Origin: a phage
DNA: 64,000 bases
Assembly: GCA_036253495.1 (NCBI GenBank)
Contig: GCA_036253495.1_4125.1
Reading direction: 5' to 3' (one strand)
The position numbers were made by a program, and so were the translations under genes. This document shows, piece after piece, positions 826-38,974 of this stretch (its first letter is position 1; each line of letters starts with the position of its first letter). The notes below the pieces were generated by a model, which worked only from the letters and a program-made list of their open reading frames with translations, was not told the origin of the DNA and made no database searches.

Positions 826-1376
826 TGAAACGAAGTTCTAATGTCATTCGTGAACGATTTCGTAAAGTAAAAACTATTAAGTACGGAGCGATTGCCTTGG
901 CACTTAGTAGTACTTTTATTATGACTGGATGTGAACGCTCTGAAGATATTTCTGTATATCAGAATGTGGACCAATGTAAAAGAAGTGGTAGCAATCCGGT
1001 ACAATGTGAAGATGATTATAAAAAAGCACTAACTGAATCGGAAAAGGTAGCACCAAAATATAGTTCACAAAGTGATTGCTCTAGTGATTTTGGTAATCAG
1101 TGTCAACAGCATAGCTCTGGATTCTTTTGGATGCCAATTATGAGTGGATTCCATAGTAGTGGTAATGGGTTTGCTAGTCAACCATTATACAACTCTAAAG
1201 GGAACTTCTATGATGCTGGTGGTAACTCCTACGGTAGCAGTACTGCAAAAGGTACAACACGTACTGTATCAAGTTCCGCATTAGCTCCAAAACCTCCTAC
1301 AACGACCACAATCACCCGCAATGGGTTTGGGTCTTCAGTAGCCAGAAGTGCCGCTCACACGAGTTCTGGTGGATAA
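825..1376 (+). CDS. DUF1190 family lipoprotein (YgiB/YjfM-like)
   Basis: signal peptide with lipobox IMTGC; motifs QCQQ, FWMP, APKPPTTTTITRNGFG recalled from E. coli YgiB; ATGA overlap with upstream ORF. Confidence 0.65.
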   Translation: MKRSSNVIRERFRKVKTIKYGAIALALSSTFIMTGCERSEDISVYQNVDQCKRSGSNPVQCEDDYKKALTESEKVAPKYSSQSDCSSDFGNQCQQHSSGFFWMPIMSGFHSSGNGFASQPLYNSKGNFYDAGGNSYGSSTAKGTTRTVSSSALAPKPPTTTTITRNGFGSSVARSAAHTSSGG

Positions 1377-1380
1377 TAAA

Positions 1381-1407
1381 AAAAGCCCACTTAATGTGGG
1401 CTTTTTG
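1381..1407. terminator. bidirectional rho-independent terminator
   Basis: AAAAAGCCCAC-ttaat-GTGGGCTTTTTG between convergent genes. Confidence 0.75.
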
Positions 1408-4341
1408 TTATTTGTGTTTTATGTGTAAAGTGTCTAATATTGTATTGAACAATGATTTAGCAGAAATCATGATTACTTGATCAAAATCTTTAGTATAAGA
1501 AATATTAGCAGTACTGGAAGAATCTTTCACCTCATCCGGTAATGCATCAAACTCTTCTTTTTCCATAATCTTTTCAAGTTCTTCACGAGAAATGGCTTTT
1601 ACGTTTTCAATAGTCCTTAGTTGTATATTATAATCTTTATAATACGAAACTAAGTTCGTTGCGTATGAACCATCTTTAGATGCTGTGCCAGTAAAATCAT
1701 AACATCCTGTATCAGTACTAACCCAATCGATTTTCCCTGAACTACCACTATATACACCTTTGTTAAATTTAATATTAACAACATCGCCAATAGTTTTCAA
1801 TATACCACCTTTACATTCATTAAATGCGTTTAATTGATAACTTGTAGTCATATAGAATTTCGGTTCTAATGTAACAGTATCACCTACAGTTGCTTTCATA
1901 TCAGAAACACTTAAGAACAATTCATTAAATCCTTTTGAATAAGTCTTGGTAATTGTTGTCCCATCCCTGTTAGTTACTGTGTATTCTAAGTCCAATTCAC
2001 AAATACTATTCAATGATAAGTAAGGGATATCAAATTTATCAGTACTAGCATCATAAGGACATCTTGAGGATGGTAGTATACCAGTAGGGTTTGGTACGTA
2101 TTGAACTTTTGTTAACTCATACCCGCTTGCATTCGCTGGTGTAACTGTAATAGACGGTGTAGATATTCCTTTCATTCCACAGAAGTATATGTTATCTGGA
2201 AAATCATTTATTACGAAGTCAGTGACAGGAATATCATAAGTATCTTTATCAGTCCAATTAAGAACAACATTAGAACTGGTTGGATCAACAATATGTTCAC
2301 TAGAACCACAGAAATATACTGATTTGGTATTAGTAATCATTAGTAATGTTTTGGATGATGAGTTCAATTCAAGAACATCTTTCACTTCAAGACCAGATGG
2401 TAATGTCAATGGTAACTTCGTGAATGATGTTAAATCTTGTTCATCTTTAACACCACTAGTCCCCGCCGGAAACTTACCTGAACCATAGAAAACACCTTTA
2501 TTCGTCATGAAATACATGAACGGGGTTGATGTTCCTTTGTCAAATAGTTTAATGTCATCACATGTTAAACCATCAGGTAAACTTACTTTAGATGGAGTTC
2601 TATAAACACCAGGCTTAATACCACCTTCACCATTACTTACATCACCTAGTACATATAAATCTTTACCTAGTTTTAAGAACATTGATTTATTTTTAGCACA
2701 CAAGAATGTATCATATGATTTATCATCAATTGGTAGCTTGGTATACTCGGTGTATGTATGTATTGAATCATCAATCCACGAACTATCACCACTAATGTAA
2801 ATGTGATTGTTTCTGTCAATATAATATGAATACACATCAGTACTGTTCATATATAAAGCATTTAGTGCATTTGTTTTCACTAAGTGATTGAACTTAAGAA
2901 CTTGTTTTCCATCGTACTTATGGGAGTTGACACCAATATCACCATTCAGGCTACTACCAAATGAATATATGTGACCACGTGGTAATAGAACTTGAACACC
3001 ACTTTTGGTTAAATTATATTTGGAGTGCAAGAGATCGTTATATACAACTCTAACTTTCTTAAAGATATCAGTACATTCAATCCACGATTTAGATGGTGTA
3101 CCATCCATTCCTATTATTGCTGGATCACCATAATAATAAGCTTTATTTTCATATGATATTTTAAAAGATGATTTACCATCTTTTGTATTAGCACTGAAAT
3201 ACACATCTTTACTATCTTTAATTGGATAAGTACTATTCTCTACAAAAGTATTATATGAGATATCGTTGTTAGCACTATTAAGAACAAAAGAAGTAGATGT
3301 ACTATTGGACTTATAGACTGCTACGGAAGATGTATCACTGAAATCAATTTTAGTGAACGTATCTTTGTATGTTTCGTTTAATAATCCTACATAAAAAACA
3401 TCAGTGCCATCAGTAACGAATATAGCATTTCTATTATTACATAAAGAAGTAATATTTTTTACTACTTTATTTGAATTATAGTTCGGTAACTTCTTTAATC
3501 CACGAACAAAATTATCACAAATAATACCAGTACCATAGAAGTTATAATCTTTATCACAGTATATAAATGCTGTATCATATGGTGAAGTACTTAAATTCTT
3601 ATAGAATGGGAATGGAGTGAATGTGAATTGTAGAACATTACGCAATTCCCCTACTGTCTCTGTTGGGAATTGTCTGTTTTTATTATTTCCAAGAAAAACA
3701 ACTCTATCTGTTAGGTATGTGTACATAATTCCATATGGTTTTACGTACAAGTCATTATATCCTAATGATAATTTAGTTGGTGATGTTAGTGGACCGGAAT
3801 TTATTTTATTTTGGTTAAAAGAAAATTCATTTGAATTATAACCAGCCCCATATGTATTACCATCAGTACTTAAATAATATACAGTAGCTTCCCCTGCTCC
3901 AAGAAAAGTCTTTACATCAGTTGCTAACGTTTTTTTGAAAGTTGGATAAAATTTATTATATGTTCCCGTTCCCATCATCAGTTCACCATTGCGGTTATGA
4001 CCACGAGCATATAGAATACCTTTGTCTGTATCTAAGAAGAACATTCCATTATATGTTTTGTAAATCTTACCTTTTGTAATATCGAAATTGGAAAAATCAT
4101 CACTAATATCAATGAATATTGTCTCAAGGTTATCTTCAAGGGAGTTTAGAGATTTACCACAATACCATACTGAGTTATCTTTTTTAACAGCAACACAACC
4201 ACACGGACTGGCATCAAAATATGTTACATCGGAAAGAACCAGTGATAAGTTCTTTGTACTGCAATAGTTATCCATTGCATATAAATCGGAATCTTTAAGT
4301 ATATATACGGAATTCCCAACCGCTTTAATCGAATTTATCAT
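1408..4341 (-). CDS. large RCC1-like repeat protein (candidate tail fibre/receptor-binding protein)
   Basis: 977 aa from ATG with GAGGA SD (track TTG start at 4431 lacks SD); GxNxxGELxxG-type blades; lacks MLPFVRM N-terminus. Confidence 0.6.
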   Translation of the reverse strand: MINSIKAVGNSVYILKDSDLYAMDNYCSTKNLSLVLSDVTYFDASPCGCVAVKKDNSVWYCGKSLNSLEDNLETIFIDISDDFSNFDITKGKIYKTYNGMFFLDTDKGILYARGHNRNGELMMGTGTYNKFYPTFKKTLATDVKTFLGAGEATVYYLSTDGNTYGAGYNSNEFSFNQNKINSGPLTSPTKLSLGYNDLYVKPYGIMYTYLTDRVVFLGNNKNRQFPTETVGELRNVLQFTFTPFPFYKNLSTSPYDTAFIYCDKDYNFYGTGIICDNFVRGLKKLPNYNSNKVVKNITSLCNNRNAIFVTDGTDVFYVGLLNETYKDTFTKIDFSDTSSVAVYKSNSTSTSFVLNSANNDISYNTFVENSTYPIKDSKDVYFSANTKDGKSSFKISYENKAYYYGDPAIIGMDGTPSKSWIECTDIFKKVRVVYNDLLHSKYNLTKSGVQVLLPRGHIYSFGSSLNGDIGVNSHKYDGKQVLKFNHLVKTNALNALYMNSTDVYSYYIDRNNHIYISGDSSWIDDSIHTYTEYTKLPIDDKSYDTFLCAKNKSMFLKLGKDLYVLGDVSNGEGGIKPGVYRTPSKVSLPDGLTCDDIKLFDKGTSTPFMYFMTNKGVFYGSGKFPAGTSGVKDEQDLTSFTKLPLTLPSGLEVKDVLELNSSSKTLLMITNTKSVYFCGSSEHIVDPTSSNVVLNWTDKDTYDIPVTDFVINDFPDNIYFCGMKGISTPSITVTPANASGYELTKVQYVPNPTGILPSSRCPYDASTDKFDIPYLSLNSICELDLEYTVTNRDGTTITKTYSKGFNELFLSVSDMKATVGDTVTLEPKFYMTTSYQLNAFNECKGGILKTIGDVVNIKFNKGVYSGSSGKIDWVSTDTGCYDFTGTASKDGSYATNLVSYYKDYNIQLRTIENVKAISREELEKIMEKEEFDALPDEVKDSSSTANISYTKDFDQVIMISAKSLFNTILDTLHIKHK

Positions 4342-4561
4342 GTTTATATCCTCATAAATTGATACCAATTCTAATGTATTTACCCACTTAAAGTACAAAA
4401 AATGATCAATTAAATGGGGAATCTTTAACAAATGAATTCATGATGTACTTGATGAATTGCCCATACCAACGGATTCCCCAGTCCCAGCATACCACATGGT
4501 ATTATCGAACTTTTTTATAATTGTAGTATCATAACCACACCAAACATCATCAACATTAGTA

Positions 4562-29509: not shown

Positions 29510-29561
29510 GTTTTACATAGCAAGGGGAAACGGTTTCCCCTGGTAACTAAGGAAATGAATT

Positions 29562-30029: not shown

Positions 30030-30032
30030 TAC

Positions 30033-30061
30033 TAGACAACACAACGGGGCTATTATATAAT
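30033..30061 (+). promoter_or_regulatory. promoter
   Basis: TAGACA-17-TATAAT within imperfect palindrome. Confidence 0.45.
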
Positions 30062-30093
30062 AGTCCCATCTTAAGCAAACAAGGAACTACAAA

Positions 30094-30432
30094 ATGATCT
30101 CAATCGCTCAATCTAACTTTGAAAACGAAATCATCGCCCAGGCACTGCGTTTAAATGATGGTCGGGCCGAAATTAATTACGGTTTCAATTCAGGCGGTTG
30201 TGAAAACTATCAGTACTTTGTAACGGCTGATGGCGGTGTCCTGGGAATCAATACAGTTATTGTAAACATTCAGAAAATTAATTTCAATGATCCAGAAGAT
30301 AGCCAGTTTTACATCACGGGCGTAGACGTGAACTATGAGGATGACTCACTAACTGATGATTGCACTGGTGAGAAGTTAGAAAGTGCATACGGTGAAGATG
30401 ATTATCAGTCCGGTCCAGAAGATTTCGAATAA
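30094..30432 (+). CDS. acidic hypothetical protein (candidate DNA-mimic)
   Basis: 112 aa; highly acidic C-terminal half (NDPEDSQFY...YEDDSLTDD...YGEDDYQSGPEDFE). Confidence 0.6.
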   Translation: MISIAQSNFENEIIAQALRLNDGRAEINYGFNSGGCENYQYFVTADGGVLGINTVIVNIQKINFNDPEDSQFYITGVDVNYEDDSLTDDCTGEKLESAYGEDDYQSGPEDFE

Positions 30433-30445
30433 TATAAAAAATAGT

Positions 30446-30473
30446 TTGACAATAGATTATAGTACTGTATAAT
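30446..30473 (+). promoter_or_regulatory. early promoter + 5' stem-loop
   Basis: TTGACA-16-TATAAT; hairpin GGGGAGAA/TTCTCCCC. Confidence 0.65.
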
Positions 30474-30524
30474 AAGTTACATCAAGGGGAGAATAGTTCT
30501 CCCCACAAACAGAGAGAAAACAAA

Positions 30525-30737
30525 ATGGCTAATATCCGCACTGTACTGAAAAATGCAAAACAAGTTTTATTTTCTGATCATGAAAATTTCAACAAGGATA
30601 TCACAGGCGTTCGGAATATCAAAGATGTAAAAAATGTTATGGGTATCTATTGCAATATGAAACGTGTTGGCACGTTCGGCGATAAAGTACTATACCAGGC
30701 AGGGGATTACAATTTTACACTGACTATCATTAACTAA
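30525..30737 (+). CDS. hypothetical early protein
   Basis: 70 aa; promoter + hairpin upstream. Confidence 0.65.
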   Translation: MANIRTVLKNAKQVLFSDHENFNKDITGVRNIKDVKNVMGIYCNMKRVGTFGDKVLYQAGDYNFTLTIIN

Positions 30738-30756
30738 AAATATTATCACAGTACTA

Positions 30757-30785
30757 TTGACAACGTTTGATAGTACTGACATAAT
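30757..30785 (+). promoter_or_regulatory. early promoter (duplicated cassette, copy 3)
   Basis: TTGACA-17-CATAAT. Confidence 0.6.
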
Positions 30786-30827
30786 AACTTTTATCAAGAC
30801 AACGCATATTAACTTAAGGAATTAAAA

Positions 30828-31007
30828 ATGGCTATTATCGCAAAAACTGAAATCGTTGGTCTGGATTCTATCATCATGACGTTTGAAGATCAAAAAGGGA
30901 TGTATGTAGTTTCCTATGGTGATTATGTTCGGGAGTATGAAACGGTAGACGAAGCCTTTGAAAGTTACATTCGCCAGGTGAATAAAGCATACGACGACTA
31001 CCGCTAA
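30828..31007 (+). CDS. small hypothetical protein (59 aa, not in ORF track), cassette paralog of 26644-26856
   Basis: MAIIAKTEIVGLDS...; same promoter/leader cassette as 26553-26643. Confidence 0.55.
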   Translation: MAIIAKTEIVGLDSIIMTFEDQKGMYVVSYGDYVREYETVDEAFESYIRQVNKAYDDYR

Positions 31008-31034
31008 AATATATTACCAGTACTATTAAAGATA

Positions 31035-31062
31035 TTGACATAGTTTGATAGTACTGTATAAT
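31035..31062 (+). promoter_or_regulatory. early promoter
   Basis: TTGACA-16-TATAAT. Confidence 0.6.
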
Positions 31063-31106
31063 AAGTTTTATCAACAGTAGTTAACTTAACCTAAGAGAGA
31101 AAGAAA

Positions 31107-31250
31107 ATGATCGCACTGGATTCATTCATCGAAGCAGTACTGGCAAAAACTGGCGAAGATCTGACCGCAGAACAATACGCAATGATCGAACAATGCCAGC
31201 AAGACGGTAAATCGGTGAAAGATACTGTTAAGATTATCCGCAAGATGTAA
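31107..31250 (+). CDS. small hypothetical protein (47 aa, not in ORF track)
   Basis: MIALDSFIEAVLAKTGEDLTAEQYAMIEQCQQDGK...; promoter upstream, terminator downstream. Confidence 0.5.
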   Translation: MIALDSFIEAVLAKTGEDLTAEQYAMIEQCQQDGKSVKDTVKIIRKM

Positions 31251-31255
31251 GATTA

Positions 31256-31288
31256 TAGCCCACTGGTTAACGCTGGTGGGCTTTTTAG
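31256..31288 (+). terminator. rho-independent terminator (contains Chi octamer)
   Basis: AGCCCAC-tggttaacgctg-GTGGGCT + TTTT; includes GCTGGTGG. Confidence 0.65.
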
Positions 31289-31362
31289 TATATACCTATC
31301 CGATAGTACTACAAAATAGATTAGCTCGTTAGAATGCGTTTGAGAGCGTTTAAATAAGTACT

Positions 31363-31390
31363 AAAAAGTATTGACAGTACTGATAGATAG
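31363..31390 (+). promoter_or_regulatory. early promoter + 5' stem-loop
   Basis: TTGACA-16-TATAAT; hairpin GGGGAA-acatc-TTCCCC. Confidence 0.65.
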
Positions 31391-31445
31391 TGTATAATGT
31401 TTTACATGAAGGGGAAACATCTTCCCCTACTAAGAGGAAAACAAA

Positions 31446-31634
31446 ATGGAACAATTATCAAGTATTTTAGTACAAGATGAATACGGCAATCCAGGAAGTG
31501 CTATCATTGTTCGGGGTAATAAGGCAACGTTTGTTATTGCTGGTGGACCTGTACAGCGTAGCATTAAAAACAATGCCGTTACTATTAATAATGTACGCTA
31601 TCGTTTAGATAAAGAATTAATTCATAAACTTTAA
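31446..31634 (+). CDS. hypothetical early protein
   Basis: 62 aa; promoter + hairpin upstream. Confidence 0.65.
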   Translation: MEQLSSILVQDEYGNPGSAIIVRGNKATFVIAGGPVQRSIKNNAVTINNVRYRLDKELIHKL

Positions 31635-31642
31635 AAAAGTAC

Positions 31643-31670
31643 TGGACAATAGATTATAGTACTGTATAAT
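31643..31670 (+). promoter_or_regulatory. early promoter + 5' stem-loop
   Basis: TGGACA-16-TATAAT; hairpin GGGGAGAA/TTCTCCCC. Confidence 0.6.
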
Positions 31671-31720
31671 AAGTTACATGAAGGGGAGAAATGATTCTCC
31701 CCAGTACTGAGGAAAGAAAA

Positions 31721-31933
31721 ATGCAAGGTCAACTAATCGTTCGTAAATGGTCTGATACTAACGCTAAACCGTGGGATGTACAATACATCGCCCCCAATGG
31801 TGAATCCAGATATCAACCAGGTGTAACGCATAGTACTGAGCAATATGCCGCCGCACACCGTGAACGCCTGTTACAATCCATGCAGCAAGGCTTCGGTGAA
31901 AAATTCATCCAAGATCATTGGCTGAAAGATTAA
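31721..31933 (+). CDS. hypothetical early protein
   Basis: 70 aa from MQGQLIVRKW; promoter + hairpin; track extension rejected. Confidence 0.65.
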   Translation: MQGQLIVRKWSDTNAKPWDVQYIAPNGESRYQPGVTHSTEQYAAAHRERLLQSMQQGFGEKFIQDHWLKD

Positions 31934-31941
31934 AAAAGTAT

Positions 31942-31969
31942 TTGACAAAGTATCACAGTACTGTATAAT
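31942..31969 (+). promoter_or_regulatory. early promoter + 5' stem-loop
   Basis: TTGACA-16-TATAAT; hairpin GGGGAGAA/TTTCTCCCC. Confidence 0.65.
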
Positions 31970-32020
31970 TAATTACATCAAGGGGAGAAGTTTTCTCCCC
32001 ACCATATAAGGGTAACAGTT

Positions 32021-32110
32021 ATGCACATGAATCCGTTCATAGTAGTAATTGCAATCATTATGGCAGTACAGGCCGTATTAGTTTACTTAAGCAAAGCAGG
32101 AGTTATCTAA
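32021..32110 (+). CDS. small hydrophobic membrane peptide (29 aa)
   Basis: MHMNPFIVVIAIIMAVQAVLVYLSKAGVI; promoter + hairpin upstream. Confidence 0.4.
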   Translation: MHMNPFIVVIAIIMAVQAVLVYLSKAGVI

Positions 32111-32111
32111 A

Positions 32112-32285
32112 ATGATCCATGTAGAATTATCAGTACTGAAAGATTTGTTTTATCGGATGGGTACTACTGGCGAATATCCGAAGGGTGATACCGCAAAACT
32201 TTTTGTATCACTCGACTTATGGCAACGCGAACAATTAGTAACGTCCTGGCGTAAAGGTAAAGCCGACAAGGGGGCCGTAGCATGA
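32112..32285 (+). CDS. small hypothetical protein (57 aa, not in ORF track)
   Basis: MIHVELSVLKDLFYRMGTTGEYPKGD...; preferred over antisense track ORF 32150-32332. Confidence 0.45.
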   Translation: MIHVELSVLKDLFYRMGTTGEYPKGDTAKLFVSLDLWQREQLVTSWRKGKADKGAVA

Positions 32286-32431
32286 AAGAATACATTTTCG
32301 AAGTTACGTTTTTGGGTAAAGGTATGCATCAACTGATACGGTCCAGCGGATACAGTGTTAACCAGGCGTGGAATAACTTAAAACAAATGTACCCGAACGC
32401 TATCACATATCGCAACCCTCGCGAGGCATAA
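32282..32431 (+). CDS. small hypothetical protein (49 aa, not in ORF track)
   Basis: MKEYIFEVTFLGKGMHQLIRSSGYS...; ATGA overlap with upstream ORF. Confidence 0.45.
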   Translation: MKEYIFEVTFLGKGMHQLIRSSGYSVNQAWNNLKQMYPNAITYRNPREA

Positions 32432-32446
32432 AATAAATTGAAAAAA

Positions 32447-32479
32447 GGGATTGACTCCGGTCAGTCCCTTTGCTATTAT
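32447..32479 (+). promoter_or_regulatory. composite terminator-hairpin/promoter element (copy 2)
   Basis: AAAAAAGGGATTGACTCCGGTCAGTCCCTTTGCTATTAT. Confidence 0.55.
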
Positions 32480-32578
32480 ATACGCATAGAAACAAATTAG
32501 CCCACCGGGTGCATAAATGTATCTATTGTTTGCTGGTGGAGGTATTATCTAGTACTGAAAACTATTTTTAAAAAGTAC

Positions 32579-32606
32579 TTGCATTGTACTTAGAATCAAG
32601 TATAAT
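32579..32606 (+). promoter_or_regulatory. early promoter (upstream of structured leader)
   Basis: TTGCAT-16-TATAAT GTTTTACATCAG. Confidence 0.6.
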
Positions 32607-32612
32607 GTTTTA

Positions 32613-32694
32613 CATCAGGACGGGGAATGAAACAAGTAACCCCGTTAAGTAGTCCAGGAGTAAGACATAAGAAAACCTCCCCTGATAAAATAGT
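32613..32694 (+). other. conserved structured 5' leader RNA between tandem promoters (copy 2)
   Basis: ACGGGGAAtgaaacaagtaaCCCCGT then CCAGGAG...CCTCCCCTG. Confidence 0.5.
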
Positions 32695-32722
32695 TTGACA
32701 ATAGAAAGTAAACGAGTATAAT
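32695..32722 (+). promoter_or_regulatory. second (proximal) promoter
   Basis: TTGACA-16-TATAAT before ATG 32755. Confidence 0.55.
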
Positions 32723-32754
32723 ACTTACATCAACCACTGATAAGGAAACATAAA

Positions 32755-33030
32755 ATGCGGATTCTACTGACAGCTAACGAAATCGAGCAAGTACTGACTA
32801 CTAACCTGGAACAATGGAAACGTGATGCAGATATCCAGGCGGTACAATGGCTTAACGATAAGTTAACGCCAGATGACTTAAGCAAGATTGTTGACCCTCA
32901 ATTCTATGAAGATATTCACGACACGGCTTTAAGCGTCGAGGATGTACTTGATAAGCACTACATTGATATTGATTTGCAGGTTTACGGTCGTAAAAACTTT
33001 ATCACTATTCACGACATTTACAATACTTAA
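32755..33030 (+). CDS. hypothetical early protein
   Basis: 91 aa; tandem promoters and structured leader upstream. Confidence 0.65.
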   Translation: MRILLTANEIEQVLTTNLEQWKRDADIQAVQWLNDKLTPDDLSKIVDPQFYEDIHDTALSVEDVLDKHYIDIDLQVYGRKNFITIHDIYNT

Positions 33031-33033
33031 GTA

Positions 33034-33061
33034 TTGACAAAGTATCTTAGTACTGTATAAT
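33034..33061 (+). promoter_or_regulatory. early promoter + 5' stem-loop
   Basis: TTGACA-16-TATAAT; hairpin GAGGGGAA/TTCCCCTC. Confidence 0.65.
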
Positions 33062-33115
33062 AGTTTACATCAAGAGGGGAATGGTTCCCCTCCTAACAAA
33101 GAGAGAGAAATAAAA

Positions 33116-33298
33116 ATGGCTAAGTGCACTATCTGTAAGAAAGAAATCGTATTAGTTCCAAGTGCCCGTGAACGTGCCGCTCGGTTCGGTGGCAAAGCGT
33201 CAGACTATACAAAAATGTTTACTGCCCATGCAGATTGCCAGGTAGCAAAACGTTCACAAGAAAGCGTAGAATTAATGCGTAAACTTTCCAAAAAATAA
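33116..33298 (+). CDS. small zinc-ribbon-like protein
   Basis: 60 aa; CTIC...HADC motif; promoter + hairpin upstream. Confidence 0.6.
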   Translation: MAKCTICKKEIVLVPSARERAARFGGKASDYTKMFTAHADCQVAKRSQESVELMRKLSKK

Positions 33299-33301
33299 GT
33301 A

Positions 33302-33329
33302 TTGACAAAGTATCTTAGTACTGTATAAT
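33302..33329 (+). promoter_or_regulatory. early promoter + 5' stem-loop (duplicate of 33034)
   Basis: TTGACA-16-TATAAT; hairpin GAGGGGAA/TTCCCCTC. Confidence 0.65.
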
Positions 33330-33385
33330 AGTTTACATCAAGTGAGGGGAATGGTTCCCCTCCTAACTAAAAGAGAGAAATAAAA

Positions 33386-33709
33386 ATGGCTATGATCCTC
33401 ACCCAGAAAGTAGAACTGAAAATTGTAACATCCTTTGACATTAAAGTTAATCGGTGGACTGATTCACACGGCAATACTTACCACTCTTGCTACGTGTCTG
33501 CGTTAATTGGCGACCGCTGGGAGGATTTAGGACATGAAACCTTTACTTACGGTTACGGCACACAAGGCGAATACACGGGCTTGGAGATCATTAAAGAAAC
33601 GGTTATAGGTTTCAACCCGAAAGAAAAAGTTATTCATCAAATAGAAAAAGAGATCAACAAAGAAATAACAGTTCGCTACAACGATGTAAAACGTAAGAAA
33701 GACATGTAA
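33386..33709 (+). CDS. hypothetical early protein (paralog of 26948-27271)
   Basis: 107 aa; upstream promoter/hairpin nearly identical to that of 33116. Confidence 0.7.
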   Translation: MAMILTQKVELKIVTSFDIKVNRWTDSHGNTYHSCYVSALIGDRWEDLGHETFTYGYGTQGEYTGLEIIKETVIGFNPKEKVIHQIEKEINKEITVRYNDVKRKKDM

Positions 33710-33731
33710 TAGAATCCATTTAAAGTACTAT

Positions 33732-33760
33732 TTGACATTGCCCAGATAGTACTTTATAAT
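33732..33760 (+). promoter_or_regulatory. early promoter
   Basis: TTGACA-17-TATAAT. Confidence 0.6.
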
Positions 33761-33804
33761 AGACTCTAGCTTGTAGTACTAACTTAACTAATAGGATGTA
33801 TACC

Positions 33805-34200
33805 ATGATTACTAAATTCTACGCTACCCGTGAAGCTGCCCGTATTGTTGCACGCGAGGAAGGAGCAGCATTTAAAGACATGGGCACGACCGCACCGAAA
33901 GGCCAACGCTGGGCCGTACAGTTCAAAGAAATCTCTGATATTGTGAATTCACCTGAACCAGTACTAACAGCAGCAGAACAGAAGAAAGCTGATGAACTGT
34001 CAGCAGTACTTAACGCTCAAGATGAATTTATCGCGGGTTCTGATATCAAAGTACAGGTAAATGCTAATGCATGGACTCACGCGGATCACCTGGCTAACCT
34101 GAAGCGTCCAAGTGAACTGGTTCGCAACCAGAAAGAGATCCGACACGACCGTAAGGGTAATCGTGTAACAGTATACAGTAAACGCCGCCAGGTTATCTAA
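33805..34200 (+). CDS. hypothetical early protein (paralog of 21133-21399)
   Basis: 131 aa from MITKFYATREAAR; SD AGGA; terminator downstream. Confidence 0.65.
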   Translation: MITKFYATREAARIVAREEGAAFKDMGTTAPKGQRWAVQFKEISDIVNSPEPVLTAAEQKKADELSAVLNAQDEFIAGSDIKVQVNANAWTHADHLANLKRPSELVRNQKEIRHDRKGNRVTVYSKRRQVI

Positions 34201-34221
34201 TAACTTGCAGTACTAACAACA

Positions 34222-34250
34222 CGGCGGGATCAGTTCCCGCCTTTTTTATA
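34222..34250 (+). terminator. rho-independent terminator
   Basis: GGCGGGA-tcagt-TCCCGCC + TTTTTT. Confidence 0.75.
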
Positions 34251-34262
34251 GGATAAACTAAA

Positions 34263-34517
34263 ATGATTAAGGTACAACTATCTAAAGATAATATCTTGCG
34301 GGTACACTATAAAGCCCCTCAGAGAATCATCACAAAGGCCGTACAGCTTGCTAATGAGTTTATTAATGGTAATCTATTGCCCAGGAAGTTAAGCAACGGC
34401 AAACTGCGTGTAATCGATGTAGACACTAACAACAGGATAGTAATCGAGAATACCGGAAAGATAAACCTCTATGAACACCAACAATATAATAAGAAAATAA
34501 AACTAATATCACGTTGA
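34263..34517 (+). CDS. hypothetical early protein
   Basis: 84 aa; SD AGGA. Confidence 0.6.
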   Translation: MIKVQLSKDNILRVHYKAPQRIITKAVQLANEFINGNLLPRKLSNGKLRVIDVDTNNRIVIENTGKINLYEHQQYNKKIKLISR

Positions 34518-34542
34518 CAGTACTCAATTGTTTTAGTACTAT
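34514..34542 (+). promoter_or_regulatory. early promoter
   Basis: TTGACA-17-TACTAT. Confidence 0.55.
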
Positions 34543-34570
34543 GTATCTATACCAACACGGGAGAAACAAA

Positions 34571-34789
34571 ATGAAATTATCTAAAATCGAAAAGAAAACT
34601 ATTGATGAAGCAGTTAAGCACGGTTATACCTTTCGTAATGATTCACATTTTACCAATTTTCAACAAGGGTATCGTACTATTAAAAAACTAATTGACAAAG
34701 GTTTATTAGTTAAAGTAGATAACGGTAACGGCGTGGAGTATCAGCCAACACAAGACGCATTATCTTTAAAGAAATATGCAATTATCTAA
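34571..34789 (+). CDS. hypothetical early protein
   Basis: 72 aa from MKLSKIEKK; promoter TTGACA/TACTAT; SD GGGAGA; track extension rejected. Confidence 0.6.
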   Translation: MKLSKIEKKTIDEAVKHGYTFRNDSHFTNFQQGYRTIKKLIDKGLLVKVDNGNGVEYQPTQDALSLKKYAII

Positions 34790-34818
34790 TTGACAGTACT
34801 CAAATGTTTTAGTACTAT
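34790..34818 (+). promoter_or_regulatory. early promoter (duplicate of 34514)
   Basis: TTGACA-17-TACTAT. Confidence 0.55.
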
Positions 34819-34854
34819 ATGTACATACCAACACGGAATAACTGGAGAAACAAA

Positions 34855-35082
34855 ATGATTAATATCTTAGAACGCATCAAAGAAACTACTACGCTGGTGG
34901 ATCTACTCAATGTACTGACTTTTAAAGTAACTCGGTTTAGTACTCCTGAATTTATCAACCTCATTGATAGTAAAGGTGAATACCGCATCACTATTGAAAA
35001 TGGTCGTGCTAATGTATTCAGTACTAAATCAGGTAAAACCGCAATTCATTCTGTAATTGCAAATAAAACTGTTGCAATCTAA
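34855..35082 (+). CDS. hypothetical early protein
   Basis: 75 aa from MINILERIK; duplicated promoter as upstream gene. Confidence 0.6.
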   Translation: MINILERIKETTTLVDLLNVLTFKVTRFSTPEFINLIDSKGEYRITIENGRANVFSTKSGKTAIHSVIANKTVAI

Positions 35083-35100
35083 TTAGTACTAACATATAAT
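35072..35100 (+). promoter_or_regulatory. promoter + 5' stem-loop (kinase-like gene)
   Basis: TTGCAA-17-TATAAT; hairpin GCAGGGA/TCCCTGC. Confidence 0.55.
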
Positions 35101-35151
35101 AGTCACATCAAGGCAGGGAATACCTCCCTGCTATCTTAAAGAGTAAATGCA

Positions 35152-35736
35152 ATGCGTAATTATACTAAATTCATCCGGGCACTGGCAGAAATGGAAACTA
35201 ACAAAGAGATCCTTACAGCTTGTCGGTTGGCTGGTCTGGAGATCATCGGGGCCGGATCATCCCGTATCGTATTCGCTTTAAATGATCGGTTAGTGATTAA
35301 GGTCGCTAATTGTGACGCTGGCGTAGAACAAAATGAAACAGAATGTAAGGTATGGAATTTTTTAGATTATGACCGCCCTCACCTTAAACAGTACTTTGCT
35401 AAGGTGCATATGCATTTAAGCGATCCTGATAATATGTTTATTGTTATGGATCGTTTGAGTACTGCAAGCAAAGGCAGTGTAAAGCACGTTAACGCTTGCA
35501 ATGAATTAAAGTACAATGTCAAACGTAACACTATTGAACGCCAACACCATTTCGCTGATGCACTACAACACGTTGATGATACCTTATCAACACTAACGAT
35601 AAGAGATATCAGAAAGCAGAACATAGGCCAAGATCGCAATGGCCTGATTAAAGTACTTGATTACGGTTTAACCCGCAATATCTGGAATCAGTACTATAAA
35701 CAACGCGACGTAAAAGCCGTAACTATAACACGATAA
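35152..35736 (+). CDS. protein kinase-like protein (candidate small Ser/Thr or atypical kinase)
   Basis: 194 aa; Gly-loop IIGAGSSRIVF, Lys motif LVIKV, catalytic-loop-like IRDIRKQNIG, DFG-like VLDYG. Confidence 0.5.
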   Translation: MRNYTKFIRALAEMETNKEILTACRLAGLEIIGAGSSRIVFALNDRLVIKVANCDAGVEQNETECKVWNFLDYDRPHLKQYFAKVHMHLSDPDNMFIVMDRLSTASKGSVKHVNACNELKYNVKRNTIERQHHFADALQHVDDTLSTLTIRDIRKQNIGQDRNGLIKVLDYGLTRNIWNQYYKQRDVKAVTITR

Positions 35737-35750
35737 AAAAGATTAAAAAA

Positions 35751-35783
35751 GGGATTGACTCCAGTCAGTCCCTTTGCTATTAT
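35751..35783 (+). promoter_or_regulatory. composite terminator-hairpin/promoter element (copy 3)
   Basis: AAAAAAGGGATTGACTCCAGTCAGTCCCTTTGCTATTAT. Confidence 0.55.
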
Positions 35784-35878
35784 ATAGTCATTGAGAGATA
35801 ACTCACTGACCCATAGGGTGCATAAGTGTATCTATAATATAAGTATTGTCAGTACTGAAAACTATTTTAAAAAAGTAC

Positions 35879-35906
35879 TTGCATTGTACTTAGAATCAAG
35901 TATAAT
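35879..35906 (+). promoter_or_regulatory. early promoter + 5' stem-loop
   Basis: TTGCAT-16-TATAAT; hairpin GGGGGAAAC/GTTCTCCC. Confidence 0.65.
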
Positions 35907-35958
35907 GTTTTATATCGAGAGGGGGAAACGGTTCTCCCTGGCAATAAGGAATAAAATC

Positions 35959-36180
35959 ATGACTACAATGACTTGCATTTACGCTTCCAATCTTCTGAAT
36001 GATGCGGCCTTTAATGTTGATTCAGAATATCAATGTTATCGGGATGAAAATAAAAAAGTTTTTGTAGTTGATAATAATGGTTTCCATATTGAATTGCAAT
36101 CCGGCTTCACTGGCGTTGATGGTAAATCAGTATGGGGCGTACAGGATGATAAAGGTACATATCATTTTAAACGTAATTAA
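35959..36180 (+). CDS. hypothetical early protein
   Basis: 73 aa from MTTMTCIY; promoter + hairpin; track extension from 35791 rejected. Confidence 0.6.
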   Translation: MTTMTCIYASNLLNDAAFNVDSEYQCYRDENKKVFVVDNNGFHIELQSGFTGVDGKSVWGVQDDKGTYHFKRN

Positions 36181-36183
36181 GTA

Positions 36184-36211
36184 TTGACAAAGTATCTTAG
36201 TACTGTATAAT
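36184..36211 (+). promoter_or_regulatory. early promoter + 5' stem-loop
   Basis: TTGACA-16-TATAAT; hairpin GGGGAGAA/TTCTCCCC. Confidence 0.65.
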
Positions 36212-36263
36212 AGTTTACATCAAGGGGAGAATAGTTCTCCCCGATACTAAAAGGAATAAAATC

Positions 36264-36671
36264 ATGACTACTACTAATCAAGCTCGGTCCATCGCCAACG
36301 ATAAAAATCATGCTGCAATGGTCGCTGGTTACATTGAAGCTATGCAATTCAGTACTGTACACAATGAGAACGGCGAATACCTGGAAGATTATGAATTATC
36401 AGAGCAAGCCCATCAAGCGGCAGTGATTGCATGTTCACGTTTCCTTGCTGTACATGGTGAAGATATGGAAACAGTACAAAAACACCATAATCCTGATTAT
36501 ACTTATAATCATGCAGGTCATGATCTCTTTCTTACTCGCGAAGGTCACGGTACTGGCTTTTGGGATCGTGATATCGGTCACTATGACGATGTATTCACTA
36601 AGTACTGCGAAGAAATCAACGTTTGCGATCCCTATGTAGGCGATGATAATCTAATCTATATGGGCGAATAA
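36264..36671 (+). CDS. hypothetical protein with His/Asp-rich motif
   Basis: 135 aa; HAGHDLFLTREGHGTGFWDRDIGHYDD suggests metal-binding/hydrolase-like site (speculative). Confidence 0.65.
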   Translation: MTTTNQARSIANDKNHAAMVAGYIEAMQFSTVHNENGEYLEDYELSEQAHQAAVIACSRFLAVHGEDMETVQKHHNPDYTYNHAGHDLFLTREGHGTGFWDRDIGHYDDVFTKYCEEINVCDPYVGDDNLIYMGE

Positions 36672-36677
36672 AAGTAC

Positions 36678-36705
36678 TTGACAAAGTATATCAGTACTGT
36701 ATAAT
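36678..36705 (+). promoter_or_regulatory. early promoter + 5' stem-loop
   Basis: TTGACA-16-TATAAT; hairpin GGGGAGAA/TTCTCCCC. Confidence 0.65.
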
Positions 36706-36758
36706 AGTTTACATCAAGGGGAGAATAGTTCTCCCCACCAATAAAAGGAAACAACATT

Positions 36759-37031
36759 ATGTCAAGCTACTCCGCTACTATGATCATTAAAGATATGAAC
36801 GGTAATCCTACTTCTGCTGGTGGATCATTTGGAAACATTAACTTAGATGGTCGGTTATCAATGGAATCAGCCATCAATGCAGCGAAAGAAGTTTTTAAGA
36901 ATGAATGTACTGTAAGCAAGCTAGATTATATGGGCTTCGCTATCGAGAAAACTAAACGTTTTGTGGACTACAAAAATCCACTAATGATTGATACTAACCT
37001 GAAAGCTAACGAAGTGGAATACTTATTATGA
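36759..37031 (+). CDS. hypothetical early protein
   Basis: 90 aa; promoter + hairpin upstream. Confidence 0.65.
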   Translation: MSSYSATMIIKDMNGNPTSAGGSFGNINLDGRLSMESAINAAKEVFKNECTVSKLDYMGFAIEKTKRFVDYKNPLMIDTNLKANEVEYLL

Positions 37032-37219
37032 CAGTTGAAGAAGTTAAAAAAGTACTGGCAGTACTACGCTATCATAATCATTGCAAGGTGAAGAATGATC
37101 CTGATTATGTTGATTCATCCCTGGAGGAAGACACCTTAAACGCGATAAGCCATATGCAAACATTAGCAAAGCGTATGACCGAAAAGAATAGGCCGGACTA
37201 TATCGGAAATAAAATTTAA
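37028..37219 (+). CDS. hypothetical early protein
   Basis: 63 aa; ATGA overlap with upstream ORF. Confidence 0.55.
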   Translation: MTVEEVKKVLAVLRYHNHCKVKNDPDYVDSSLEEDTLNAISHMQTLAKRMTEKNRPDYIGNKI

Positions 37220-37226
37220 AAAGTAC

Positions 37227-37254
37227 TTGCATTGTAGTTAGATTAAAGTATAAT
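37227..37254 (+). promoter_or_regulatory. early promoter + 5' stem-loop
   Basis: TTGCAT-16-TATAAT; hairpin GGGGGAAA/TTTCCCCT. Confidence 0.65.
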
Positions 37255-37306
37255 GTTTTATATCGAGAGGGGGAAATGGTTTCCCCTCAAGTCCAGGAGA
37301 TACACC

Positions 37307-37570
37307 ATGAACACTATCGAAATCACTATTAATGCTCACGTATACGACAACGTAGTACTGCAAACTACTATGACCGCTAACGATACCAGTACTTTGCGGA
37401 ATACTGTTATAAGTGCTGTATGTGCCGCTATCGGTGATGTATCCCTGGAAAATGCAGAACACATCAACAACGGTTTCACTATGTGCAAACGTGATAACGC
37501 AAAACATATCATCGTAGAAGGTTACGGCGGTGTAGAATATAACCTTTATATGAAAAAAGTACTTGCATAG
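37307..37570 (+). CDS. hypothetical early protein
   Basis: 87 aa from MNTIEITINAH; 3' end overlaps next promoter. Confidence 0.6.
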   Translation: MNTIEITINAHVYDNVVLQTTMTANDTSTLRNTVISAVCAAIGDVSLENAEHINNGFTMCKRDNAKHIIVEGYGGVEYNLYMKKVLA

Positions 37571-37590
37571 TAACTAAAACAAAGTATAAT
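37563..37590 (+). promoter_or_regulatory. early promoter + 5' stem-loop
   Basis: TTGCAT-16-TATAAT; hairpin GGGGGAG-atatc-CTCCCCC. Confidence 0.65.
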
Positions 37591-37638
37591 GTTTTGCATA
37601 GGGGGAGATATCCTCCCCCACTAATAAGGAGTACTACG

Positions 37639-37863
37639 ATGGCTAATCATGATGAACTGATTCGGGAAGTAGCTAACCTGGCGGCAGAAAAGAAATCATT
37701 TGATTCTATCTATAACACCGCTCACCGTGATTCAGTACTGGCATGTAATCAGGATCAAAAAGATGAACTGATCGCAACCTATCATGAAGCATGGAAGTAT
37801 TACCGTCAATGGGAGAAAGAAGAAAAAGCATCAACCATAAGAGGATTAAATAATCTAGTATAA
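37639..37863 (+). CDS. hypothetical early protein
   Basis: 74 aa from MANHDELIREV; SD AAGGAG. Confidence 0.6.
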   Translation: MANHDELIREVANLAAEKKSFDSIYNTAHRDSVLACNQDQKDELIATYHEAWKYYRQWEKEEKASTIRGLNNLV

Positions 37864-37869
37864 CAATAA

Positions 37870-37900
37870 AAGGGGATGATAATATCCCCTTAATAATTTC
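37870..37900 (+). terminator. possible terminator (weak U-tract)
   Basis: GGGGAT-gataat-ATCCCC + TTAATAATTT. Confidence 0.4.
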
Positions 37901-37915
37901 TATAATAGGTTAACA

Positions 37916-38182
37916 ATGAAAAAGAAAACAACATATCGCTATAATAAAAATTATCAATCCGTTGTATTAGATCACTCTATGCTCCCGCTCGTTGTCCCTG
38001 CCGTTGGTGTAGTCTATCAATCCATATACTGGTCAAGGAAACAACAAAAGTACTTAAAAGGCCCACTAGCACGTTATGAGGGTAACGGTGTATGGTCCGA
38101 TCCGTTACATCCAATCACTACGCGTTATATTGAATATTTTCCTTATTGTGACTACATTGAAATACATCCTAAATTTAATTGA
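37916..38182 (+). CDS. hypothetical early protein (paralog of 38263-38520)
   Basis: 88 aa; shares NG.W.DP..PI and YIE motifs with next gene. Confidence 0.6.
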   Translation: MKKKTTYRYNKNYQSVVLDHSMLPLVVPAVGVVYQSIYWSRKQQKYLKGPLARYEGNGVWSDPLHPITTRYIEYFPYCDYIEIHPKFN

Positions 38183-38187
38183 TAGTA

Positions 38188-38215
38188 TTGACAGTACTAA
38201 CTGATAGTGTATAAT
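38188..38215 (+). promoter_or_regulatory. early promoter + 5' stem-loop
   Basis: TTGACA-16-TATAAT; hairpin GGGGGAATACTCCCCC. Confidence 0.65.
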
Positions 38216-38262
38216 GTTTTGCATAGGGGGAATACTCCCCCAATATTAAAAGGGGAATCATC

Positions 38263-38520
38263 ATGGAACAATTCACACAATATCGGGTAAATCCTCAAGC
38301 TATGGCCTACGTAGAAGACCATAAAACGTTACCAGTACTGCAACCAGTTAAAGGCCGTATCTATCGTGGCCTTGCATGGAATACGGCCCAGGATGGATAT
38401 AAAACCGTTGCCGTGGGGATGTATTGCGGGAATGGTGAATGGTTTGATCCTAACAATCCGATTGCACTTGACAGTACTGAAAAAATGAAATGGGCCGACT
38501 ATATCGAGGATATCTCATAA
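38263..38520 (+). CDS. hypothetical early protein (paralog of 37916-38182)
   Basis: 85 aa; promoter + hairpin GGGGGAATACTCCCCC upstream. Confidence 0.65.
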   Translation: MEQFTQYRVNPQAMAYVEDHKTLPVLQPVKGRIYRGLAWNTAQDGYKTVAVGMYCGNGEWFDPNNPIALDSTEKMKWADYIEDIS

Positions 38521-38525
38521 AACTA

Positions 38526-38554
38526 TTTGACAGTACTATCATATAGTGTATAAT
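38526..38554 (+). promoter_or_regulatory. early promoter + 5' stem-loop
   Basis: TTGACA-17-TATAAT; hairpin GCGGGGGAA/TTCTCCCGC. Confidence 0.65.
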
Positions 38555-38609
38555 GTTTTACATAGAGCGGGGGAATAGTTCTCCCGCCAATAGTTTGGAG
38601 TAAAACATT

Positions 38610-38810
38610 ATGTCAATCGCTATCGCCCTGGTTGAAGTACTGAAAGAAGCTAAAGCTAACCTGATCGACGTAAAGATCCAGGAACTACAATCCGGCTTAA
38701 TCGGCTGTACTTGTACCGCTGGTGGGGCGACAGATTATCGTGAATTCGAATCACTCGAATCTATGGTTCGGTATCTTACAATGATCGTGGAAGATTGGAA
38801 GATCATCTAA
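38610..38810 (+). CDS. hypothetical early protein
   Basis: 66 aa; promoter + hairpin upstream. Confidence 0.6.
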   Translation: MSIAIALVEVLKEAKANLIDVKIQELQSGLIGCTCTAGGATDYREFESLESMVRYLTMIVEDWKII

Positions 38811-38828
38811 CAAAAAAGAATAAAAAAA

Positions 38829-38861
38829 GGGATTGACTCCGGTCAGTCCCTTTGCTATTAT
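38829..38861 (+). promoter_or_regulatory. composite terminator-hairpin/promoter element (copy 4)
   Basis: AAAAAAAGGGATTGACTCCGGTCAGTCCCTTTGCTATTAT. Confidence 0.55.
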
Positions 38862-38974
38862 ATACGCATAGACAAAAACTAGCCCACAGGGTGCATAGGT
38901 GTATCTAAAATATATAGTTAATAACGGTGAGTAACTATCTGCTGGTGGAGTGAAAACTATTAATAAAAAACTAT

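Follow-up and report, generated by a model that had tools for sequence, protein, structure and literature searches.

Why should a phage carry the Chi octamer of Escherichia coli, GCTGGTGG, many times over and almost always on the same strand? The question is raised by a 64,000-nucleotide stretch of phage DNA (the window; contig GCA_036253495.1_4125.1 of NCBI GenBank assembly GCA_036253495.1). A first-pass annotation, made from the sequence alone, had proposed that Chi is over-represented and strand-biased there, and an exact search of both strands makes the case stronger than it had been put: nine copies lie on the + strand and one on the − strand (where it reads CCACCAGC on the + strand), against a mean of 0.48 for both strands together in dinucleotide shuffles (n = 100), of which the richest held two and none reached ten. 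All coordinates given in that annotation are correct, and one + strand copy, at 34893, had been overlooked. Its rough estimate of less than one copy per strand from composition also holds, with Markov models of orders 0–4 giving 0.2–0.6 copies per strand for the whole window. The sequences flanking the ten copies are mutually unrelated, so that what is counted is not one repeat tallied ten times. The organising principle, however, had been overlooked: the cluster coincides with the homologue of a long direct terminal repeat (DTR), that is, with DNA expected at both physical ends of the genome. Eight + strand copies fall within this 21.7-kb block, compared to 0.11–0.35 expected there on that strand by the same Markov models.

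The assignment of the block follows from close relatives. The window is 86–98% identical to jumbo coliphages of the 121Q/PBECO4/G17 type (genus Asteriusvirus, 350–380 kb), and since its nearest relatives (91–98% identity) were isolated on E. coli, the host of the window phage is probably E. coli or a close enteric bacterium. Bases 1–21525 of phage vB_Ec-M-J, annotated as direct terminal repeats, are collinear and homologous with the window block. For phage fEgEco12 a DTR of 20,993 bp was detected by PhageTerm and confirmed by restriction digests, and these digests matched the in-silico patterns for every enzyme tried (fEgEco12 genome paper), so that heavy modification of this DNA can be discounted. 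The two verified junctions of fEgEco12 have collinear counterparts in the window, between 18604 and 18605 and between 40311 and 40312, and the junction motif CCCACTA/AGTAGGCA (slash at the junction) is conserved. On these grounds we read the window as right-unique DNA, one collapsed DTR copy of 21,707 bp and left-unique DNA; in the virion of this phage, the block would stand at both ends of the linear genome. Its GC content is 38%, compared to 33–34% in the flanks, and it encodes about 58 small open reading frames (ORFs) of early type on the + strand.

Comparison of the repeat with the rest of a genome was made in fEgEco12 (374,733 bp; both DTR copies identical). The Chi excess in this phage is concentrated about 11-fold in the terminal repeat and is not spread over the genome: the + strand density is one copy per 2.1 kb in the DTR versus one per 24 kb in unique DNA, where both strands together hold one per 14 kb. 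Intergenic DNA gives the sharpest contrast, with eight copies in about 6.8 kb of DTR versus two in 32.8 kb of unique sequence, a difference in density of roughly 20-fold. Antisense copies in the unique region stand at the codon-aware expectation (2 vs 1.7), and sense copies, several of them in RCC1 paralogs, are about 3-fold above the codon-aware null (20 vs 6.8), codon usage covering about one third of these sites. The excess is thus real but belongs largely to the repeat, and the strand bias outside it simply tracks gene orientation. The window copy at 1215 is part of this low-density sense-strand background and not of the DTR cluster.

The octamer itself appears to have been the object of selection. 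Permutation of synonymous codons in the 58 DTR ORFs gives 0.60 coding copies where four are observed (P = 0.002), and codon usage was therefore rejected as the origin of the DTR copies. Dinucleotide shuffling of the 6.7 kb of intergenic DTR DNA gives 0.034 (+) and 0.029 (−) copies, compared to the four and one observed. Each GCTGGTG and each CTGGTGG heptamer in the window DTR belongs to a full Chi, and full Chi is commoner in four lineages than all 24 variants with one substitution taken together (8 vs 3, 12 vs 6, 8 vs 5 and 11 vs 5). The DTRs show no comparable enrichment of the Chi motifs that other bacteria use, and those motifs that are octamers are essentially absent from them. When the 2,820 octamers shared by three diverged DTRs were ranked by joint enrichment, Chi came fifth; all words above it, and most of those just below, are pieces of one promoter element, AAAGTACTTGCA…TGTATAATG / CAGTACTG. 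Words of this element (CAGTACTG, AAAGTACT and others) are commoner than Chi, which is the top non-promoter word.

Two copies, at 32532 and 38941, had been described as lying within a repeated motif. The intergenic elements that hold them are indeed paralogous, being members of a family of four, but the octamers occupy different alignment columns and the other two paralogs lack Chi altogether, so the two sites arose independently. This observation and the unrelated flanks led us to reject copying of a repeat as the source of the array. An origin in RNA genes was likewise rejected for the intergenic sites, as searches for Rfam families and tRNAs found none in the window. Selection for the host Chi sequence on a linear coliphage genome is, in our view, well supported by these computational tests.

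Comparison within the genus gives a consistent picture. At the orthologous positions of both vB_Ec-M-J and fEgEco12, each of the nine DTR octamers is preserved, as opposed to 46% of background 8-mers (P ≈ 9×10⁻⁴), and seven of nine are intact in 121Q as well and hence in all three relatives, as opposed to 31% of background 8-mers (P ≈ 5×10⁻³). The octamer at 34893 is perfect in the relatives despite flanks of only 68–69% identity. Outside the genus, Klebsiella and Erwinia jumbo phages and a metagenomic relative show a cluster with the same bias (Table 1). A search of viral contigs with a central DTR protein as the query returned two loci only, and these comparisons rest on annotated GenBank phage records. 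Many Chi positions in the other lineages are not homologous to sites in the window and a few are ancient orthologues; since the non-homologous positions occur at like density, it is the density that has been kept while individual sites turned over.

The nine DTR sites have little in common apart from the octamer. Five are intergenic and four are coding, in two reading frames; the first-pass annotation had put the coding copies in AGG codons, and they comprise three Ala-Gly-Gly sites (GCT GGT GGN) and one Leu-Val site (CTG GTG). The copy at 31272 lies, as had been noted, in a terminator stem, namely the 3' arm of a hairpin at 31257–31282 that is followed by a T-run and ranks as the top terminator-like site (11 pairs, 6 GC). 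The 5' arm reads CCACTGG and not CCACCAG and pairs via G·U wobbles, so that the RNA stem is kept without an inverted Chi on the opposite strand. Hairpins of this kind, in which the 5' arm reads CCACT.. and the 3' arm holds Chi, are present close to the DTR edge in Klebsiella phage fENko-Kae01 (Kae01; approximately 19339–19365, Chi at 19354, then a T-run), in L011 and in Hallingskeid, and this wobble design is a possible mark of orientation-specific selection. The copies at 25664 and 25726 had been called an inverted pair. The pair is real, its members being 62 bp apart, but its fold is no better than that of shuffled sequences (z = −1.2) and 121Q lost only the − strand copy with no compensating change, and a structural reason for the pair was rejected. 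In Kae01 and L011, Chi often lies within the 16–17-nucleotide spacers of sigma-70 promoters, at varying offsets between TTGACA and TATAAT (Kae01 3711, 9192, 16840 and 18721; L011 1286, 15069, 16104 and, on the − strand, 3232); one − strand copy of L011 thus sits in a − strand promoter spacer. Placement as varied as this suggests that Chi was accommodated wherever the sequence is unconstrained; a transcription signal would be expected to keep a fixed geometry.

One further arrangement is found close to the left genome end. A perfect Chi/anti-Chi hairpin, CCACCAGC-N4-GCTGGTGG, stands about 0.5–0.6 kb from this end in four relatives, the termini being mapped in three of them and placed by orthology in 121Q. 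It is common to two genera, and close relatives differ in the direction of its 4-nucleotide loop, which reads ACAA in one orientation and TTGT in the other. A search of IMG/VR with this pattern gave 46 matches, nearly all in unrelated small contigs, among which only 121Q was relevant. The window holds a decayed remnant of the hairpin (Table 1).

Table 1. Chi sites and associated features of the window, with the corresponding regions of related phages. Chi copies are given as + strand/− strand unless stated otherwise.
Feature	Genome	Coordinates or extent	Strand	Chi copies	Remarks
DTR homologue	Window	18605..40311	+	9 of 10 in window	Collinear with the vB_Ec-M-J DTR and the fEgEco12 junctions
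DTR leader, mostly non-coding	Window	18605..20353	+		Many TCAGTACTGA palindromes; first sizeable ORF starts at 20354
Chi	Window	1215..1222	+		Outside DTR; Asp-Ala-Gly-Gly codon run, sense strand, ORF 825–1376
Decayed remnant of terminal Chi hairpin, TTACCATGCAATGTGGTGA	Window	19230..19248			From alignment with relatives
Chi	Window	25664..25671	−		Intergenic; sole copy for RecBCD from the left end, 7,059 bp from left DTR edge; conserved in vB_Ec-M-J and fEgEco12; 121Q has the mutated form CCGTCAGC
Chi	Window	25726..25733	+		Intergenic; innermost right-facing copy, 14.6 kb from right edge
Terminator hairpin	Window	31257..31287	+		AGCCCACTGG-TTAA-CGCTGGTGGGCT, then TTTTT; Chi 31272–31279 in 3' arm
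Chi	Window	31539..31546	+		Coding, Ala-Gly-Gly, ORF 31446–31634
Chi	Window	32532..32539	+		Intergenic, within one copy of a repeated hairpin/promoter element; other copies without Chi at that position
Chi	Window	34893..34900	+		Coding, A CG CTG GTG GAT, Leu-Val frame, ORF 34819–35082; intact in three relatives
Chi	Window	36816..36823	+		Coding, Ala-Gly-Gly, ORF 36759–37031
Chi	Window	38718..38725	+		Coding, GCT GGT GGG, Ala-Gly-Gly, ORF 38610–38810; intact in two relatives, lost in 121Q
Chi	Window	38941..38948	+		Intergenic; outermost right-facing copy, 1,363 bp from right DTR edge; intact in vB_Ec-M-J, fEgEco12 and 121Q
DTR (each copy)	fEgEco12	21 kb		10/2
Unique region	fEgEco12	333 kb		14/10
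DTR	fENko-Kae01 (Klebsiella)	1–19736		12/2	By PhageTerm; 1/1 in the next 30 kb
GC-high block	K64-1, RaK2-like (Klebsiella)	~20 kb		8/1	None in the following 21 kb
First 21 kb	Hallingskeid (Erwinia)	21 kb		11 gene-sense/2 antisense	Outside, RCC1 genes hold sense-strand copies
DTR-equivalent block	L011 (metagenomic relative)	19.9 kb		12/4
Terminal Chi hairpin	fEgEco12	578–597
Terminal Chi hairpin	vB_Ec-M-J	588–607
Terminal Chi hairpin	121Q	896–915
Terminal Chi hairpin	fENko-Kae01	484–503			Chi at 484 and 496

What might such an array be for? Chi is active only if RecBCD reaches GCTGGTGG from its 3' side (PMC12315714; 10.1101/2021.07.08.451572). By this rule the eight + strand copies of the DTR would be active for RecBCD that enters at the right physical end of the genome, the right edge of the right-hand DTR copy. 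Their distances from this end, by geometry and with termini mapped in relatives, are 1.36, 1.59, 3.5, 5.4, 7.8, 8.8, 9.0 and 14.6 kb, and in the genomes with mapped termini the closest right-facing copy lies 0.4–1.4 kb from the right end. Only the − strand copy at 25664, 7.06 kb in, faces left; the relatives have two such copies, the terminal hairpin adding the second. We consider it probable that this is an end-proximal Chi array, maintained by selection, that switches RecBCD from degradation to RecA loading and in this way protects the genome end and promotes recombination between the DTR copies.

In such a mechanism, RecBCD would load on an exposed genome end and degrade at most a few kilobases of DNA whose second copy lies at the opposite end, so that the loss would be expendable. 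Recognition of a single Chi site by RecBCD is partial, so that an array would make recognition near-certain: one of the serial sites would be recognised, with a cumulative probability across 8–12 sites close to unity. After Chi, RecBCD would spare the 3'-ended strand, load RecA and itself be disabled afterwards. The genome could thereby be protected in cis, without a protein inhibitor and ahead of any phage gene expression, and the RecA-coated 3' tail may then invade the other DTR copy, leading to circularisation, concatemerisation or recombination-primed replication. From the sequence arrangement we infer recognition of the array by RecBCD in vivo, the identity of the exposed end, which the arrangement predicts to be the right one, and a selected benefit in the form of protection or recombination. 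Selection for RecBCD attenuation on a linear phage genome was the interpretation offered by the first-pass annotation. Enrichment, octamer specificity, conservation and recurrence in other genera speak for its selective part. Besides attenuation, Chi recognition has a second outcome that cannot be separated from the first, namely RecA loading and recombination between the repeats. None of the known RecBCD-inhibitor families was found among the 58 DTR ORFs with Pfam and PHROGs, the rest of the proteome not having been scanned.

A bolder version of this proposal is possible, and we put it forward with considerable doubt. The approximately 20-kb DTR of RaK2-like and Asteriusvirus jumbo phages could be a sacrificial, Chi-studded buffer that counters RecBCD in cis and without any protein, starting the moment the DNA enters. 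It would hand the end over to RecA for circularisation via the repeats or for recombination-primed replication and, as it would not inhibit RecBCD, go unseen by defences that guard this enzyme. The asymmetry of 8–12 copies to 1–2 would then predict that the right end enters first, in a mirror image of the first-step transfer of phage T5. By analogy, which is not evidence, a T5-like layout would be transposed: transcription of the early genes would run toward the end that enters, and the inner edge would hold a non-coding 'stop' region rich in repeats.

Several points weigh against a protective array acting on the infecting end. fEgEco12 is annotated with RecA/UvsX-like, UvsY-like, gp32, gp46/47-like and endonuclease VII genes, a T4-like recombination set, and in lambdoid phages a recombination (Rec) module goes with the absence of Chi (PMC12315714). 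The Chi strand is the gene strand genome-wide, with 20 sense and 2 antisense copies in the unique region of fEgEco12, and part of the orientation bias could be linked to coding or transcription; intergenic copies are also biased to the + strand (4:1 in the window and 6:1 in Kae01, as judged by the ORF caller used). Only one or two copies face the left end, and if this end enters first, as in T5 and T7, the leading end would be left unprotected by the array. In T5, the one coliphage with a long DTR whose polarity is known, none of the Chi copies points to the end that enters first. Chi would also be of no consequence in early infection if other parts of the genome encoded a RecBCD inhibitor or an unrecognised protein that protects the ends. 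The compared lineages are in part mosaic, and L011 and Kae01 share identical segments, so they are not fully independent. Finally, RecBCD dependence, exposure of the end and injection polarity are all assumed for the Asteriusvirus group.

Among the alternatives, the one that fares best keeps the interaction of RecBCD with Chi but moves it to a later stage, in which replicating or concatemeric DNA, broken forks or packaging intermediates, and not the infecting end, would be the substrate, comparable to lambda red gam chi+ and to rolling-circle plasmids. It would account for the co-orientation of Chi with transcription throughout the genome, which resembles bacterial chromosomes where Chi serves fork repair, and it agrees with the recombination-dependent replication genes that this phage group possesses. 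Chi orientation in lambda, moreover, is set by packaging polarity (PMC12315714; 10.1101/2021.07.08.451572). Fork repair, however, predicts enrichment over the whole genome and neither an 11-fold concentration in the DTR nor intergenic enrichment confined to it, and terminase cuts at the DTR boundaries bare unique-region DNA on the unpackaged side, where Chi is not enriched. We regard late action as unlikely.

A second alternative, which seems to us quite unlikely, is immune evasion. Chi sites bound the hot zones of spacer acquisition at DNA ends, and some retron and abortive-infection systems sense inhibition of RecBCD. End-proximal Chi might thus have been selected because it shortens the degraded tract and leaves fewer fragments for spacer acquisition by CRISPR, with no need for a protein inhibitor that would trigger a defence. 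The serial, end-proximal character of the array and the lack of a recognisable RecBCD inhibitor among the early DTR genes fit this idea, although an inhibitor may be of a novel type or be encoded elsewhere in the genome. CRISPR adaptation, on the other hand, is inactive in many E. coli strains, and with sequence data immune evasion is inseparable from the switching of RecBCD that we favour.

It is also conceivable, but very unlikely, that the octamer is bound or recognised by some other factor of phage or host (for instance one that regulates transcription, organises the nucleoid or takes part in packaging) and equals Chi by chance. Many copies do lie in regulatory DNA (promoter spacers in Kae01 and L011, terminator arms, positions upstream of promoters), and all are co-oriented with transcription. 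Their positions are nevertheless heterogeneous, ranging over varied spacer offsets, terminator stems, upstream regions and two coding frames, and the odds that the top non-promoter 8-mer should equal the host Chi are about 1 in 30,000–65,000. All hosts of cluster-bearing phages are Enterobacterales, and Chi activity of GCTGGTGG is reported for several members of this order, though not established for Erwinia.

That there was no selection at all, and that the copies are a by-product of composition, of Ala-Gly-Gly and Leu-Val codon usage, of repeat amplification or of shared ancestry, could draw on the preferred Ala and Gly codons of the phage at three of the four coding sites (GCT GGT GGN), on the somewhat higher GC content and the repeat families of the DTR and on the descent of shared sites in close relatives, but it is effectively refuted, because the counts exceed every null model by factors from 7 to more than 100, intergenic DNA holds five of the nine DTR sites, the flanks of the sites are unrelated, repeat paralogs differ in the presence and position of Chi, exact Chi exceeds all its one-base variants summed, and its density is kept at non-homologous positions in other genera.

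A role for Chi at the ends of phage genomes has precedents, in phages that need RecBCD or profit from it. In the P1 family (P1, P7 and D6), Chi lies near the genome ends within the terminal redundancy and was proposed to drive circularisation by RecBCD and RecA (Subramaniam & Smith, bioRxiv 10.1101/2021.07.08.451572). Like the window phage, these phages have linear virion DNA with kilobase-scale terminal repeats that can, or must, recombine after injection, and in both the exact E. coli Chi is strongly over-represented, concentrated at the DNA ends and dense in non-coding DNA. The proposed role, recombination of the repeats by RecBCD and RecA, is also the same for the P1 family and Asteriusvirus. 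The differences are nonetheless considerable. P1 is temperate and packages by headful from pac, with variable ends and a redundancy of 5–10 kb, whereas the window phage belongs to a group of virulent myoviruses of approximately 350–380 kb with fixed ends and an exact DTR of about 21 kb. P1 Chi sites are nearly random in orientation over tens of kilobases, in contrast to ratios of 8:1 to 12:2 in one direction in Asteriusvirus and RaK2-like phages. Chi outnumbers every other octamer of P1, while promoter words are commoner than Chi in the window DTR. For P1, dependence on RecA and RecBCD has been demonstrated; for the group of the window phage, the case made here is one of sequence.

The second precedent is LLS, a Rec-less lambdoid phage with 23 Chi sites, 20 of which have the orientation read from the right end, near which they cluster (Zheng, Casjens, Davidson, Amundsen & Smith, Genome Res 2025; PMC12315714). 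LLS and the window DTR share the presence of many Chi toward one end, mostly in one orientation and at about one per 2 kb, and the interpretation is the same, namely selection of Chi to exploit the RecBCD of the host. Phages of the LLS type, however, have neither a recombinase nor a RecBCD inhibitor and carry Chi across the whole of an approximately 43-kb cos genome, whereas relatives of the window phage encode UvsX/UvsY/gp46/47-like proteins and their high density is limited to the DTR (relative to unique DNA, roughly 11 times as dense on the + strand and 20 times as dense between genes). The Asteriusvirus case therefore breaks the correlation between lack of a Rec module and high Chi content, and the group of the window phage would work like the P1 and LLS types but departs from each in defining features.

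T5 (NC_005859) resembles the window phage in genome layout. It too is a virulent coliphage with a long exact DTR (10.2 kb) that carries pre-early host-takeover genes and strong host-type promoters, with one of the repeat's edges occupied by non-coding DNA rich in repeats. In T5 the left repeat enters first, the pre-early genes point toward the entering end and the non-coding 'injection stop' lies at the inner edge; the window would be the mirror image of this layout. The T5 repeat contains no comparable array but two Chi only (8127 and 8689), both on the + strand and facing the right end, which enters last. We rejected T5 as a calibrator of Chi orientation against injection polarity, as two sites are too few. 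By a rough estimate that was not computed, these two copies compare with about 0.1 expected in the repeat. The chromosome of E. coli, for its part, shares with the window DTR the identical octamer and a bias co-oriented with gene expression and presumably replication. Chromosomal Chi is spaced at about one per 4.6 kb, roughly uniform and mostly coding (CTG GTG frame), as opposed to a concentration in a DTR block of 38% GC with half of the sites intergenic.

In the literature that was searched, no report links Chi to jumbo phages or to direct terminal repeats, and the fEgEco12 genome paper discusses DTR-mediated circularisation with Chi and RecBCD unmentioned. The oriented, DTR-confined array that appears to be conserved across RaK2-like jumbo phages of Enterobacterales with their own recombinase would extend the precedents of P1 and the Rec-less lambdoid phages. 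If our interpretation is correct, large virulent phages that possess recombination machinery still tune their genome ends to the RecBCD/Chi code of the host, which would contradict the simple rule that Chi richness is limited to phages without a recombination module. It would also provide a rationale for the long terminal repeats of jumbo phages, as expendable duplicated DNA placed ahead of serial Chi, together with a means of predicting from sequence which of the two genome ends lies open to the cytoplasm and a genetic handle on the early survival of therapeutic jumbo coliphage genomes. In addition, it would suggest that RecBCD of Erwinia and Klebsiella reads the same octamer.

The DTR has further features of its own. 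Twelve perfect sigma-70 promoters (TTGACA-16/17-TATAAT, 12/12 matches) lie on the + strand between window positions 26000 and 39000, and the same stretch of about 13 kb holds several 11/12 matches, so that one stands ahead of nearly every small ORF; this early-promoter array is unusually strong and uniform. Of the palindrome CAGTACTG, the DTR block has 38 copies, set most densely in the leader (18605–20360), which they fill, and the flanks have seven; AGTACT occurs 145 and 14 times, respectively. CAGTACTG abuts or overlaps the promoter hexamers, as AAAGTACTTGCA… at −35 and CAGTACTGTATAATG at −10, and is a candidate for an operator or another regulatory motif in these early promoters. The intergenic repeat family that includes the Chi sites at 32532 and 38941 consists of elements of about 200 bp, each headed by a hairpin with a 12-bp stem, AAAGGGATTGACTCCGGTCAGTCCCTTT (29162–29189, 32444–32471, 35748–35775 and 38826–38853). 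This hairpin holds a TTGACT −35 hexamer in its stem and is followed by GCTATTATAT, which is −10-like. The leader (about 1.7 kb, with three tandem 26-mers at 19151–19228) forms the inner edge of the right-hand DTR copy and, by comparison with T5, could be an injection-stop or packaging region.

With respect to coding content, one of the 58 small ORFs that were searched (18696–40592) matches a Pfam ParE-like toxin domain (E = 6e-11) and another matches DUF7249 (E = 5e-14). The annotation of K64-1 lists a YafQ-like toxin and a YeeU-like antitoxin in or beside the equivalent block, which suggests that toxin-like early proteins may be encoded in the terminal repeat. Directly upstream of the DTR (window 1408–18000), the − strand carries about ten paralogous genes for proteins of approximately 370–400 amino acids, annotated in relatives as RCC1 or 'chromosome condensation regulator' (fEgEco12 array 330398–348732); the RCC1 paralogs of fEgEco12 and Hallingskeid hold several sense-strand Chi copies. 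Right after the DTR (40359–43500, + strand), packed ORFs of about 65–85 amino acids follow one another with overlapping stop and start codons. Relatives list dozens of consecutive hypothetical proteins for this run, which looks like an array of paralogous small genes.

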